Of a DNA stretch of 64,000 nt, positions 41,975 through 46,018 are shown piece after piece (the stretch's first letter is position 1; every line of letters begins with the position of its first letter). Below the pieces are notes generated by a model that saw only the letters and a list, made by a program, of their open reading frames with translations, searched no databases and had not been told where the DNA came from. The translations under genes and the position numbers were made by a program. Source of the stretch: Armatimonadota bacterium (GTDB lineage Bacteria; Armatimonadota; UBA5829; DSUL01). The DNA is taken from assembly GCA_039811685.1 (NCBI GenBank), contig JBDHZC010000004.1, positions 1 to 64,000 on the forward strand, written 5' to 3'.

Positions 41975-42002
41975 TAAAGCTTCAGCGCATTGTGGACGTT
42001 AT
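41975..42002 (+). promoter_or_regulatory. sigma28 (FliA/SigD)-like promoter
   Basis: TAAA-N16-GACGTTAT (6/8 match to GCCGATAT) just upstream of a flagellar rod gene. Confidence 0.55.
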
Positions 42003-42022
42003 TCTCCAGTGGAGGACGCGTG

Positions 42023-42814
42023 ATGTTGAACGGAATCTACCGCGCCGCGATGGGCATGCGCGGGGAACTGGACATTCAGGACACTCTGGCAAACAACATA
42101 GCAAACGCCGGAACTGTCGCCTTCAAGCGGCACATTCCCACGTTCGCGGATGTGATGGCCGGTGGGCCGCCTCCTACCGGTAGGCCTGCCACAGTGCCTC
42201 AAGCAGCGGCTGGTGTCTCCCTGCGTCCGGCGGGCGTCACTATCGTTGACAACAGAGCGTACGTGTCGCTATCGTACAATCGCGCGGAGGCGAACTTCGA
42301 CCCCGCACCCGGAGAGGTGCGCCACACCGGGCAGGACCTCGACATGGCGCTCACGGGCGACGGCTATTTCACACTCCAGACAGCGTCCGGGCAGCAGCTC
42401 TACACGCGCGCTGGCGACTTCGTTCTGGACGCGGATCAGGATCTGGCGACCAGTCAGGGTTACAAGGTTCTGGGCGAGCAGGGCGCAATCCATATCGGAC
42501 AGGGAGCGGTCAGCGTGTCCGCCGAAGGAGATGTGTCCGTGGACGGTGAAGTGCGCGGCCGCCTGCTGATTTCCGAGCTTTCAAACCTCGATCAGGCCGA
42601 AGAGCTTGACGGTGGAACCTTCCGCTCCCGCTCGGCTGTACCAGCCTCCGCAGTCTCAGTGCGCCAGGGATTTCTCGAGCAGTCCAATGTCAACGCAGTT
42701 GAGGAGATGGTCGCCATGATCGCGAGTCTGCGCGCCTACGAAGCCGCTCAACGCGCTGTAATGGCGGGAGACAGCCTGCTCGGCAAAGCAGTTAACGATG
42801 TAGGCCGCGTCTAG
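42023..42814 (+). CDS. Flagellar basal-body rod protein FlgF/FlgG family
   Basis: ANNIANAGTVAFK, TGQDLDMALTGDGYF, YTRAGDF, QGFLEQSNVNAVEEMV; GGAGG RBS. Confidence 0.92.
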   Translation: MLNGIYRAAMGMRGELDIQDTLANNIANAGTVAFKRHIPTFADVMAGGPPPTGRPATVPQAAAGVSLRPAGVTIVDNRAYVSLSYNRAEANFDPAPGEVRHTGQDLDMALTGDGYFTLQTASGQQLYTRAGDFVLDADQDLATSQGYKVLGEQGAIHIGQGAVSVSAEGDVSVDGEVRGRLLISELSNLDQAEELDGGTFRSRSAVPASAVSVRQGFLEQSNVNAVEEMVAMIASLRAYEAAQRAVMAGDSLLGKAVNDVGRV

Positions 42815-42883: not shown

Positions 42884-43945
42884 TCAGCGTTTCCTGGGCC
42901 GAGCTTTTTTTGCGGGTTTCGGCTGGACTGCATAGGGTGAGCAAAGCGGGTCCCCAATCACCACATCTTTCCAGCACAGAAACGGGCTGGCCATATAGAA
43001 GCTCTCGGCGAGATTGAAGCCGCGCGTGTAGCGGTCGAAAAGAATCTGAGCTCGAGCCATAGATGTGCCGTAGGGCTCCGTCACGTAGCCCTTTACCCCA
43101 GTGATACCGTCCGCTATCAGGTCGCCGATCTGAGACTGTCCGTGGTTCTCTTTCGTGAAAGTGCGTGCGCTTGTTGACACAATAGTCTCAGCGATCGCTC
43201 CGGGGAGAAACGTATTTGAGTGGTAGCTTCTTGCGTTGAAATGAGCATCGTTTGATCCCCACGAGTAGTACCCCATCAGATTCTTGTATCCGCCGACAAA
43301 ATTCTCACTTGAGTCCAGCTTGTAGGGCACTTCGCGCTCCAGCAGCCGAAGAGCCGCTGTGCGCATATCCTGGTTCAGCTCCACATATCCGGGCAGCTTG
43401 TCCTTAGCAGGGTCAATGTCAAGCAGAATTGTGCCGCGCTTACCCGCTGACTGTAAAGAGCGAGTTACCAGCGCCCTGGCATCCGCCAGGGTGTAGCCGT
43501 CCAGCCGGGTCACCAGGAAGAATTTAAAGTCCTTGCTGCGAAACCTCTGCGCGCGCCCAAAATAGGGGTTGTTCATCTGCGTTTCGTACCCGTACGGCAA
43601 CATAGTCAGCATACTGTCAACGGAGAAGCCGCGGTTGTCGTAGAGCGGTACACCTTTGGTGGTCACGATAAAATCCAGATTTGGCAGCCCATGCTTCTGA
43701 ATGTAGTGCTTGATCGGGTTGCGGATTTTGCTGTGAAAGTCCTCCAGGCTTACCTTCTCACCAGGATTGACACTGATGTGGCAGATAAAGCTCGCCGGAA
43801 CTCCTCTCTTGGACGCATAATACTGTCCAAGAGCTCTGGACGTTGGACTGCGGTCGTTGACGATGACCAGAACGCGATCCGTTCCGCCGAAGGCGCGGGC
43901 GCACAGAGATGTCAAAAGCAAGAACAAGCACAGCCGGATCTTCAT
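42884..43945 (-). CDS. TIGR03790 family secreted protein
   Basis: Signal peptide; VLVIVN...YYASKRGVP, TTKGVP, LVTRLDG, WGSND, GITGVKGYVTEP, AESFY...IGDPL. Confidence 0.8.
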   Translation of the reverse strand: MKIRLCLFLLLTSLCARAFGGTDRVLVIVNDRSPTSRALGQYYASKRGVPASFICHISVNPGEKVSLEDFHSKIRNPIKHYIQKHGLPNLDFIVTTKGVPLYDNRGFSVDSMLTMLPYGYETQMNNPYFGRAQRFRSKDFKFFLVTRLDGYTLADARALVTRSLQSAGKRGTILLDIDPAKDKLPGYVELNQDMRTAALRLLEREVPYKLDSSENFVGGYKNLMGYYSWGSNDAHFNARSYHSNTFLPGAIAETIVSTSARTFTKENHGQSQIGDLIADGITGVKGYVTEPYGTSMARAQILFDRYTRGFNLAESFYMASPFLCWKDVVIGDPLCSPYAVQPKPAKKARPRKR

Positions 43946-44113
43946 AGTATTCGGTTATACCACTTTGTGTGGGCAATCGTTCCAGGTGAGCGCAGGGCGT
44001 CCAGTGGGTTTGAGACATCCTGTCAGCGAGAGAGAAGGATAGGTAAACTCTATTCTCTTTCTCCCGGACGTAAGGTCAGATAAGCCTGCAGGCCGAGAAT
44101 TTGAGGCGTAAAC

Positions 44114-45379
44114 ATGAAAACAACAAAGGGACCGAAAGAGTTGGTCGTCGGCGTATTTGGCCGGAGGATGACCGGTAAGACGAACCTGATGGCCTCACTG
44201 GGCGCAGATGTGAATGGGGCTGGTGAGCCTGGCGCTGCGGAGGAGGCTGTCGTCCGGGTCAAAGGCCTGGGGCCGGTGCGTCTGATAAAGCCGCTGGGAC
44301 TTGACGACGAGCGCGCCTTGGGCATTAAGTCAACGCAGTCACGAGACCTGCTCTCTCGCCTTGACGCCGCCATCCTTGTGATCGACGCCTCACTTGGCTG
44401 GTCAGACTATGAGCGTTTCCTGCTCTCCAAGATTCGCTTCTCTGAGAATCCGGAAGTTGTCGTAATAAACCGCTGTGCCGACGAAAGCTGTGACGATCTG
44501 GAGCGCAAGCTCAGACAATTTGGATCGCGCGTGGTCCATATGGATTTGGACAAAGTTGCAGATCCAGCGCCGCTGATAACGGCGCTGATTGCTGAACTGC
44601 ATCTCCACAAGGATCTGCCAAACTTGCTGGACGGGCTGGTGAAAGAGGGAGAATCTGTCTGGCTGGTTGTTCCTAGTGGCCGCAAGAACTACCATCATCA
44701 GATTGAGCCGCACGAGTACCATCTCAAACTGGATGCGCAGAAGCTAGCAGCGAGTCTGGATGTAGTCCTGGAGGCAGACTTTGCTTCTGCGTGGGAGAAA
44801 GCGTCCTCGCCTCCTCGCCTCGTAATCTGTGACCACGAAGTGCTGGACCACGTGCAGCGGCTGGTTCCACGCAATCTGCCTCTGACCACGCTGGATATAC
44901 TCACAGATCGTCAGCGCGGTGAACTGGCGACCTTCGTCCAGGGTGCAGAGACGATCAAGAGTCTCAAAGCGGGAGACAGAATCCTGATCACCTCCTCGAG
45001 CGATCTTGAGATTCAACCGGACGATCATTCGCGCAACGAGATGCCCAGTTTGCTGCGGACGTGGGTTCGGGGAGATCTTGAGTTCAGTCTGGCGTCCGGC
45101 GAAGGTTTGGAATCGGGACTGGACGGCGTCGATCTGGCGGTTCGCTGCGAGCCGACAACGCATGACAGGGCAGACGGTCTTAGCGATGTCGAAGTAGCTC
45201 GCCGCAAGAACGTTCCCATCACGTCGTACGGCGTCGCGTTTGCGTATGTTCATGGTGTGCTGACGCGCCTGGTGAAACCTTTTGTCAGCCTTGGTGAGTT
45301 CTCAGCGCCCGACGTCGATCTGACTCGCGCCCTGCCACTGGTACTGCACGATGAATACTCGAGCATGGCGTCAATGTAG
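44114..45379 (+). CDS. Degenerate HydF-like protein ([FeFe]-hydrogenase maturase GTPase homologue)
   Basis: VGVFGRRMTGKT, LGPVRLI..LGLDD, VWLVVP, PRLVICD, LPLTTLDIL, LKAGDRILI, NVPITSYGV follow the HydF three-domain layout; catalytic and Fe-S motifs are missing. Confidence 0.75.
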   Translation: MKTTKGPKELVVGVFGRRMTGKTNLMASLGADVNGAGEPGAAEEAVVRVKGLGPVRLIKPLGLDDERALGIKSTQSRDLLSRLDAAILVIDASLGWSDYERFLLSKIRFSENPEVVVINRCADESCDDLERKLRQFGSRVVHMDLDKVADPAPLITALIAELHLHKDLPNLLDGLVKEGESVWLVVPSGRKNYHHQIEPHEYHLKLDAQKLAASLDVVLEADFASAWEKASSPPRLVICDHEVLDHVQRLVPRNLPLTTLDILTDRQRGELATFVQGAETIKSLKAGDRILITSSSDLEIQPDDHSRNEMPSLLRTWVRGDLEFSLASGEGLESGLDGVDLAVRCEPTTHDRADGLSDVEVARRKNVPITSYGVAFAYVHGVLTRLVKPFVSLGEFSAPDVDLTRALPLVLHDEYSSMASM

Positions 45380-45406: not shown

Positions 45407-46018
45407 GTGTCAATGATTTTCCCAATCGGCTTGGTCTTATTTGCCATAGCAGCTCTCAATTACCCGGTAATGGGCAGCGCTCCGGCGCCGCGGCAAACCA
45501 CTGAAGGAACCAGACAGGCTGTAGTGAGCTTGCGGGAAGCGGGGTGGGATGGCAGGGAGCCGGCAGTTGTGGTGGATATAGCCCGCCAACGGCTCCTGCT
45601 CTTTGAAAAGGGCGCAGTCTCCCACGCGTGGCAGGTGTCAACGTCGAAGTATGGCGTTGGTTATGTCCCGGGTTCTTACAAGACGCCTGTTGGGTTGCAT
45701 CGAATCTGGAGGAAGGCGGGCGCGGCTGCGAAGCTGGGCCAACCGCTGAAGAACGGCGAGCCTACAGATGCTCCTGTCGCGGAAGAAGGACAGAAAAAGA
45801 AAGTATTCATCAGCACCCGCGCTCTGATGCTGGACGGGCTGGAGAAGGACAACCAGACCAGCAAGTCTCGGGGCATCTGGATCCACGGGACGACGGCCGA
45901 GGAGAAGATAGGTCAGCCAGCCTCAATCGGGTGTGTGCGGATGCGCAACGTGGACGTCATCCAGCTGTTTGACTTCGTGCGCGAAGGTACGCTCGTTTAT
46001 ATAACCGATCGCCGCTGA
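45407..46018 (+). CDS. L,D-transpeptidase (YkuD family)
   Basis: Signal/TM; VSTSKYG, TPVG, IWIHGT...IGQPASIGCVRM (His...Cys catalytic motif). Confidence 0.92.
   Translation: MSMIFPIGLVLFAIAALNYPVMGSAPAPRQTTEGTRQAVVSLREAGWDGREPAVVVDIARQRLLLFEKGAVSHAWQVSTSKYGVGYVPGSYKTPVGLHRIWRKAGAAAKLGQPLKNGEPTDAPVAEEGQKKKVFISTRALMLDGLEKDNQTSKSRGIWIHGTTAEEKIGQPASIGCVRMRNVDVIQLFDFVREGTLVYITDRR

Follow-up and report, generated by a model that had tools for sequence, protein, structure and literature searches.

What becomes of a HydF protein when the residues for GTPase switching and for binding of the [2Fe] unit have been replaced? The question is raised by a gene in a 64,000-nucleotide stretch of Armatimonadota DNA (the window), the product of which was described, in an initial annotation made from the sequence, as a full-length HydF homologue that had lost both its GTPase switches and its Fe-S ligands. 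We conclude, with a probability of about 0.9, that this protein (pseudo-HydF) is a paralogue of HydF that is maintained by selection but is not a maturase.

Pseudo-HydF retains the architecture of HydF

The pseudo-hydF ORF is intact, as initially described: it encodes 421 aa, runs from an ATG at 44114 to a stop codon at 45379 with no internal stops, and is preceded by GAGG 7 nt before the ATG. The gene and the segments of its product are as follows.

44103..44106, + strand: Shine-Dalgarno-like GAGG, 7 nt 5' of the ATG, recognized from the sequence
44114..45379, + strand: pseudo-HydF ORF (P0001), 421 aa, three HydF domains and a family-specific C-terminal tail
44159..44182, + strand: P-loop GRRMTGKT; Gly, Lys and Ser/Thr in 18/18 members, K+-binding Asn lost in 18/18
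44204..44257, + strand: switch I, shortened and weakly conserved, with PGAAEEAV in place of GTTTDPV
44288..44323, + strand: G3/switch II KPLGLDDERALG; G3 Asp lost in 18/18, GLDDERALG invariant
44363..44443, + strand: strand 4 and helix 3, residues 84-110 including GWSDYERFLL, a candidate new binding surface
44468..44482, + strand: G4 NRCAD; Asn in 18/18, Lys in 1/18, Asp in 1/18
44624..44920, + strand: HydF dimerisation domain PF18128; GRLILPQ lid replaced, His241 and Asp261 at the sites of the pocket Ser residues
44930..45280, + strand: HydF Fe-S domain PF18133; one of three Cys left, Asp304 and Tyr372 kept
45290..45376, + strand: C-terminal tail, conserved in the pseudo-HydF family only, with R405, P408, H412, E414 and M421 invariant

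The identification of the protein as a full-length HydF homologue was upheld by profiles, by matches to crystal sequences and by fold. Pseudo-HydF matches TIGR03918 over profile positions 6-391 of 392 (204.9 bits, E 1.7e-60), a score below the curated cut-off of 325.55 bits, and matches both Pfam HydF domains above their cut-offs (HydF_dimer, residues 171-269, E 3e-10; HydF_tetramer, residues 273-389, E 4e-21). A phmmer comparison with solved structures returned three HydF crystal sequences only. The AlphaFold model, which was based on an 18-row alignment, had a pLDDT of 83 and gave HydF as its top fold match, both in Foldseek and in a separate structural comparison (Z 26.8); its G domain (residues ~6-168) aligned to the G domains of IF2 and Ras (Z ~17, rmsd 2.5-2.9). 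With respect to domain arrangement the model was 14.5 A from the HydF crystals, but a canonical control model was itself 7.5 A away, at a similar TM-score.

The base composition of pseudo-hydF (GC 0.571, GC3 0.63) matches that of its own genome, and horizontal transfer was rejected on this basis. A promoter scan at the gene found no sigma-70-like sites, and the same scan gave one terminator-like site against 1.7 expected. Three short RNA contigs from three libraries fall within the gene at a depth of 2-4, for which DNA carry-over is a possible source. A search for longer, fused forms of pseudo-HydF found none, which is weak evidence.

The G motifs are degenerate in all members

HydF is characterized by the G motifs G2 TTT, G3 DTxG and G4 NKxD (PMC5431965), and its GTPase motifs and Cys residues are essential for maturation (PMC6212873). 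The motifs were tabulated in 18 pseudo-HydF members, 19 canonical HydF proteins from Armatimonadota and 159 other HydF proteins, the last chosen as best hits and hence enriched for divergent sequences. All of the motifs that had been quoted for the window's protein are present: GRRMTGKT (residues 16-23), PGAAEEAV (39-46), KPLG (59-62), NRCAD (119-123), SSSDLE (294-299) and RCEPT (344-348). The accompanying statement that only the P-loop survives is correct for the P-loop, the GxxxxGK[ST] pattern of which occurs in 18/18 members, but overlooks the G3 Gly (Gly62) and the G4 Asn (Asn119), both of which are also found in all 18. The G3 Asp is absent from every member, compared with its presence in 19/19 Armatimonadota canonical and 156/159 other HydF proteins. 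The G5 Ser and each of the two Asn residues typical of K+-activated GTPases are likewise found in 0/18. Four of the 18 members have a Thr aligned at G2, though inside a shortened loop, and the distance from the G1 Lys to the G3 Gly is 41 residues in 15/18 members versus 46 in canonical HydF. Lys22 is the sole invariant among the 16 majority-Lys columns of the family, a modest indication of continued binding of a phosphate ligand. By sequence and fold pseudo-HydF is a candidate pseudoGTPase, a class for which inability to bind or hydrolyse GTP is the biochemical criterion; its earlier designation as a pseudo-GTPase paralogue is borne out by these losses in the alignment and by a second, canonical hydF in the same genome.

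Loss of the [2Fe] pocket precedes loss of the cluster cysteines

The ligands of HydF were sought as CxH-x46-53-HCxxC, with three Cys. The window's protein departs from this pattern, as it has one Cys and no motif His; CxH is replaced by SSSDLE (44993-45010) and HCxxC by RCEPT (45143-45157). The reported loss of the Fe-S ligands is thus accurate for two of the three Cys, C345 having survived, but does not hold as a trait of the family, since 15/18 members, that is 15/15 outside the window's clade, keep all three cluster Cys, and the loss came later and in the window's lineage only. The two Cys are missing from just three members, the window's protein, L091 and L092, which form one clade (IQ-TREE support 99). 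With respect to orthologues sharing the same losses, those in the GTPase domain are family-wide, but those of the Cys extend to L091 and L092 only. Both motif His are lost family-wide, the 15 Cys-keeping members included (the CxH His is found in 0/18), and all 15 retain the equivalents of Glu296, Asp306 and Asn375.

The [2Fe]-binding pocket, which was not on the initial list of losses, has also gone. In T. melanesiensis numbering, transferred here via alignment to the HydF crystal sequences, Ser243, Ser263 and Asp306 are key residues of this pocket, to which the lid loop also contributes (PMC13360658). The GRLILPQ lid is lost family-wide (lid Arg in 1/18), and no member has both pocket serines, each lacking at least one. 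In the window's protein Ser243 and Ser263 are replaced by His241 and Asp261, and Asp306 is kept as Asp304. Of 51 positions at least 90% conserved in canonical HydF, the Cys-keeping members have kept 22 and lost 29, the latter being mostly GTPase-switch, lid and pocket residues. A C353A/C356A variant of HydF is dead (PMC12752695), and the inactivity of this two-Cys knockout makes the window's protein implausible as a maturase.

Pseudo-HydF is confined to one Armatimonadota family

Pseudo-HydF is present in 6/6 GTDB genomes of the window's Armatimonadota family and was not found in the other 395 of the 401 phylum genomes searched, where, with four candidates scored per genome, the best hits reached at most 286 bits. 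A protein search gave 14 matches at 43-100% identity, counting one partial match and the cluster to which the query belongs, followed by matches at 32% or less, and a 14-member profile run against 1.84 billion representatives gave three matches of at least 375 bits, the next reaching at most 262 bits. The members scored with TIGR03918 reach 199-250 bits, all below its cut-off, and the source labels of the family are Armatimonadota. The clusters of P0007 and P0009 are misleadingly named, most named members of one being called 'HydF' and two members of the other '2-iminoacetate synthase'; 'HydF' is the JGI name for members of two clusters. One sequence, P0015/L100, departs abruptly after residue ~250 and is probably from a chimeric contig, rather than a natural truncation.

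All 18 members grouped together in a FastTree phylogeny, as a single clade with a very long stem branch, and the 13 members supplied to an IQ-TREE quick tree formed one clade with a support of 100; neither tree fixed the point at which the stem attaches. The nearest HydF to the family is the genome's own canonical protein (mean identity 0.35, profile score 293 bits), and the AU test does not reject a tree that unites pseudo-HydF with the canonical HydF of the same Armatimonadota family (p 0.144). An origin by duplication in the ancestor of the Armatimonadota family would be allowed by these sequences.

Other HydF-like proteins (the P0062/P0140 group, P0095/P0127, P0098, P0142 and P0063) resemble pseudo-HydF in having lost the lid and kept three Cys; most of them lack the Asp306 equivalent. 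Unlike pseudo-HydF, however, they retain the G3 Asp, and they lie on separate branches. Further lid-less members of these groups are P0195-P0198, and P0108, the cluster of which is from Maridesulfovibrio, retains most of the lid. Two or more key losses occur in 14 of the 159 other HydF proteins. HydF-derived paralogues may, as judged from such sequences, have arisen repeatedly.

A canonical hydrogenase system is encoded elsewhere in the genome

A scan of the window confirmed that it contains no hydA, hydE or hydG. The complete canonical system lies on contig C1 of the same genome, in the order hydC-hydB-hydA-hydG-hydE-aspA-hydF. The HydF encoded there scores 566.8 bits with TIGR03918 and is 33% identical to pseudo-HydF; HydG and HydE exceed the cut-offs of their own models, and HydA passes that for group A6. 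Canonical hydF was found in 5/6 genomes of the family, and in all five the two hydF genes are non-adjacent. The exception, G004, also lacks ftsH, which is the neighbour of hydF in G002; the absence of both ftsH and the region corresponding to G002-hydF makes an assembly gap likely, and the view that G004 relies on a degenerate HydF alone was rejected for this reason. G004 is rated 96% complete despite its missing ftsH orthologue.

The cluster at G000:C1:877000-895000 (L009, L067) has its hydB/hydC-like genes in two sets. It also encodes HydA of group A6, a second Fe-S protein that is hydrogenase-like, and proteins of DRTGG, PHP and kinase type (two of these assignments being taken from sequence), and ends hydG-hydE-aspA-hydF. 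It faces a sigma factor-anti-sigma-htrA module, which also adjoins hydG-hydE in G012 and G018. In the 18-19 kb that were examined at the intact hydF genes of G001 and G002, none of hydA, hydE and hydG occurs. Across L074-L089 and L115-L134, which sample this Armatimonadota class, hydG-hydE usually occupies one site and hydF, often accompanied by aspA, another; hydE or hydG was found within 11-18 kb at 0/15 hydF loci of other families in the class, and G045 has hydF together with hydE/hydG. A second hydG at G004:C1:589384-590760 (L116) is 51% identical to that of G000, with hydE, hydF and hydA not nearby.

Most pseudo-hydF genes lie in a hydrogenase operon

The surroundings of the gene in the window are as follows.

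42884..43945, - strand: TIGR03790 family gene, divergent, at the left end of the syntenic site
43946..44113, no strand: 168-bp gap between the TIGR03790 gene and pseudo-hydF, the site of a ~14-gene hydrogenase cluster in G001, G003 and G004
45407..46018, + strand: YkuD-family L,D-peptidase gene, ElsL-like though below cut-off, 27 bp downstream and co-directional

We compared 20 loci (the window, 5 genomes and 14 metagenome contigs), at 15 of which the upstream gene is visible. hydE is directly upstream at 11/15 (G001-G004, L093-L096, L100, L101 and L104, several of which are near copies) and TIGR03790 at 4/15 (the window, L091, L092 and L102), L092 and L102 having an identical protein sequence across their overlap. 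The TIGR03790 and L,D-transpeptidase genes were named initially as neighbours in the window, but most loci of the family lie inside a hydrogenase operon, and the envelope-gene context of the window is what remains at sites without the operon. In G001, G003 and G004 a cluster ending hydA-hydG-hydE is located between TIGR03790 and pseudo-hydF, with ~14 bp between the end of the hydE match and the start codon of pseudo-hydF in G001. On the 3' side the L,D-peptidase gene follows at 14/15 loci with usable downstream DNA, the remaining locus (L097) having an HDOD gene; this count leaves out L100, which is likely chimeric, and L092, L101, L102 and L104, which end too early. A lone flgF/flgG-like gene lies at 41990-42814 of the window, between an alpha/beta hydrolase gene and TIGR03790; it has no second genomic copy at E 1e-15, occupies the same site in L102 and is absent from G004.

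The three Cys are kept in 8/8 operon-linked copies sequenced through domain III and lost in 3/3 complete detached copies. It should be emphasized, however, that the operon-linked loci are closely related to one another and that the detached clade represents one event, so that the link between operon and Cys is a single contrast. htrA adjoins hyd genes in G000, G012, G018, G008 and G043, and no hyd genes were seen beside htrA in four family relatives. The comparison leans towards the hydrogenase site of G000 being the old one, a single move being required either way, and the cluster may have moved next to pseudo-hydF rather than away from it. In G023, a genome from a different family, this hydrogenase cluster occurs in the absence of pseudo-hydF, indicating that the cluster has no need of pseudo-HydF.

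Selection acts on an altered G-domain surface

The NG86 estimate of dN/dS between the window's copy and its nearest orthologue, L091, was 0.106 overall and 0.10-0.16 per domain, a rough ratio because dS (1.67) is near saturation. The value was 0.23 for L091 against L092, undefined for the window against L092, and 0.057-0.20 in six pairs of Cys-keeping copies; control values were 0.03-0.11 for canonical hydF, 0.07-0.17 for hydE, 0.03 for hydG and 0.09-0.42 for the L,D-peptidase. No premature stops or frameshifts occur in the 18 full-length sequences, and the G003 copy has an assembly gap. With dN/dS at ~0.1 and with orthologues available, pseudo-hydF is not a neutral relic, in agreement with the original judgement that it is no decaying pseudogene. 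Rate tests against four Cys-keeping copies showed that, with an Armatimonadota outgroup, the window and L091 had lost more ancestral residues in 8/8 tests (p 0.003-0.04); the excess was non-significant with a distant outgroup (0/8) and for L092 (0/8).

Segment conservation was scored among ten pseudo-HydF lineages. No segment is better conserved in the family than switch II (0.90); next in this comparison are the P311-GDLEF stretch of domain III (0.77) and strand 4/helix 3 (0.76). For strand 4/helix 3 the value in canonical HydF is 0.46, and for the C-terminal tail, which reaches 0.54 in the family, it is 0.18. Conversely, the presumed dimer strand, picked by inference from the fold, and its flanking helices score 0.33, 0.45 and 0.27, against 0.60, 0.75 and 0.46 in canonical HydF. 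Members that are only ~46% identical share 88 invariant positions, and 46 invariant positions, which take in switch II, helix 3 and the tail in their entirety, differ from the canonical majority. The cross-identity of the helix-3 face to canonical HydF is 0.28, and its partner may therefore differ from those of HydF. This distribution of constraint is better explained by a G-domain binding surface that is new or retuned than by a conserved site of dimer contact with canonical HydF, so far as sequence conservation can indicate.

Discussion

HydF (TIGR03918; PDB 5KH0, 5LAD, 3QQ5) and pseudo-HydF have the same three domains in the same order, the same fold and the same P-loop Gly, Lys and Thr, and the relatives of the window's protein also share with HydF its three Cys and a gene position following hydG-hydE. 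In contrast with HydF, pseudo-HydF lacks G2, the G3 Asp, the G4 Lys and Asp and the K+ Asn, and has a shorter switch I, a replaced lid and pocket, an added conserved tail and an intact HydF as co-resident; the window's protein has, in addition, lost two of the three Cys. As the defining tests of the HydF equivalog gave a negative outcome, pseudo-HydF is not filed as HydF despite the shared descent. Domains of p190RhoGAP are reportedly pseudoGTPases that combine a GTPase fold with degenerate G motifs under selection. AAGAB psGD resembles pseudo-HydF in the same respects, and works as a protein-binding module (PMC12490416). Both of these eukaryotic systems are unrelated to HydF, and pseudo-HydF differs in keeping an intact Walker A. 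PMC11736057 uses the term 'pseudo-HydF' once, in supposing that there are HydF look-alikes without HydF function; there it denotes BLAST hits that lack hyd neighbours, while hydF beside hyd genes is taken as authentic. This rule is inverted in G001, G002 and G003, where it is the degenerate copy that adjoins hydG-hydE. A literature search, made mostly among papers available without subscription, found no description of such a HydF-derived regulator family.

With respect to function, we tentatively suggest, at somewhat less than even odds, that pseudo-HydF may be a non-catalytic adaptor or decoy that binds HydE/HydG and tunes H-cluster assembly. GTP hydrolysis and switching would be absent, and the intact P-loop may hold a nucleotide or another phosphate without guanine specificity. 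The 15 Cys-keeping members would likely carry a 3-Cys [4Fe-4S] cluster, yet be unable to build the DTMA bridge. The conserved G-domain face and the tail probably bind a protein, for which HydE/HydG would be the best candidates, because docking of these maturases on the G domain of HydF has been suggested and because pseudo-hydF lies after hydG-hydE. Contact of the HydF G domain with HydE/HydG has been proposed, the two proteins binding HydF separately (PMC6212873), and a pseudoGTPase domain is able to serve as a protein-binding module (PMC12490416). The cluster of the Cys-keeping members could make binding iron- or redox-sensitive, an input that the window's form would lack; off the operon and deprived of its cluster, the window's lineage may have become a purely structural binder. 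In contrast with this adaptor hypothesis are the observations that the window's copy is equally constrained though outside the operon, that the most constant neighbour is the L,D-peptidase (14/15), ahead of hydE, and that G023 runs the same cluster without pseudo-hydF. Furthermore, the helix-3 face differs from canonical HydF (0.28), making another partner possible, and the relation between operon position and Cys retention is a single evolutionary contrast.

It could be argued, as in the initial annotation, that pseudo-HydF is instead a heterodimer partner of canonical HydF; pairing through domain II would yield a half-active dimer that acts as an inhibitor or an asymmetric scaffold. Backbone strand pairing is tolerant of sequence change and could have outlasted the divergence of the two proteins; domain II is complete (PF18128), canonical hydF is co-present in 5/6 genomes, and no HydF has a higher mean identity to the family (0.35) than the genome's own. 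HydF dimerises by sheet extension in domain II (PMC6212873). The surface facing a conserved partner should itself be conserved, however, and few parts of pseudo-HydF vary more within the family than the presumed dimer face. This soft evidence, together with the separation of the two hydF genes in 5/5 genomes holding both, would make such pairing unlikely. It is also doubtful that pseudo-HydF is a scaffold repurposed outside hydrogenase maturation, for example with the L,D-peptidase, its position in the operon being accidental. The peptidase gene is next at 14/15 loci, selection has continued in the lineage that lost its place in the operon as well as its Cys, and the stem branch is very long with new invariant residues that are un-HydF-like; on the other hand, L097 has an HDOD gene in place of the peptidase, the TIGR03790, MFS and PQQ genes are also syntenic, so that the peptidase link may be plain synteny, and only ~14 bp separate the hydE match from the start codon in G001. 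The peptidase, moreover, has an N-terminal hydrophobic stretch and is likely exported, while pseudo-HydF appears from its sequence to be cytoplasmic.

The retention of three Cys and of the Glu296, Asp306 and Asn375 equivalents in 15/15 members outside the window's clade would suit an Fe-S carrier or reservoir within the operon, similar to NfuA, that passes a 3-Cys cluster to HydG, HydE, HydF or HydA. NfuA, which strongly raises maturation in vitro (PMC12752695), provides a precedent, and other divergent HydF lineages are also lid-less with three Cys. Such a role would leave the strong constraint on the G domain unexplained, and also the window's copy, in which it would have been lost but which, with one Cys, has a dN/dS near 0.1 in the Fe-S domain; we regard it as quite improbable. 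The possibility that the family is a slowly decaying relic, constrained by folding only and furthest gone in the window's lineage, has largely been refuted by dN/dS and is now very improbable. The extra ancestral residues lost by the window and L091 (8/8 tests, Armatimonadota outgroup) and the rough ratio at a dS (1.67) near saturation speak for decay, but the rate excess disappears with the distant outgroup (0/8) and for L092 (0/8), and 18 intact full-length sequences, presence in 6/6 genomes and 88 invariant positions speak against it. Finally, we give scarcely any credence to the operon-linked members being working, GTP-independent HydF maturases. They occupy the usual hydG-hydE-hydF slot and keep three Cys and Asp306, canonical hydF is missing from G004, and the isolated HydF Fe-S domain can bind and deliver a ready-made [2Fe] unit (PMC7450098). 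However, all 15 lack the lid, both His and one or both of the pocket Ser, the absence from G004 is likely an assembly gap, and the window's copy is excluded as it lacks the C356-equivalent Cys.

A more specific proposal, which we consider unlikely as it stands, is that [FeFe]-hydrogenase maturation has a fourth, dedicated component in pseudo-HydF, a HydF-derived pseudo-GTPase of the hydG-hydE operon that senses iron or redox state through its [4Fe-4S] cluster and sequesters HydE/HydG or HydF. If true, H-cluster assembly would be under post-translational control, with the cluster-less form of the window acting constitutively, and similar Cys-keeping derivatives of HydF would have arisen independently in other lineages.

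The range of pseudo-HydF is narrow, a single uncultured Armatimonadota family known from sequence, and within this family the annotation rule that hydF beside hydE/hydG is the real one fails. The roles of the GTPase domain and of the [4Fe-4S] cluster of HydF are still debated (PMC6212873, PMC12752695, PMC13360658). This family extends the material for that debate by providing natural, selected proteins at two stages, the first without the GTPase and the [2Fe] pocket, and the second also without the Cys. Pseudo-HydF is suited to existing defined maturation assays, and any activity that it retains would mark a function of HydF independent of both GTP hydrolysis and cofactor assembly.
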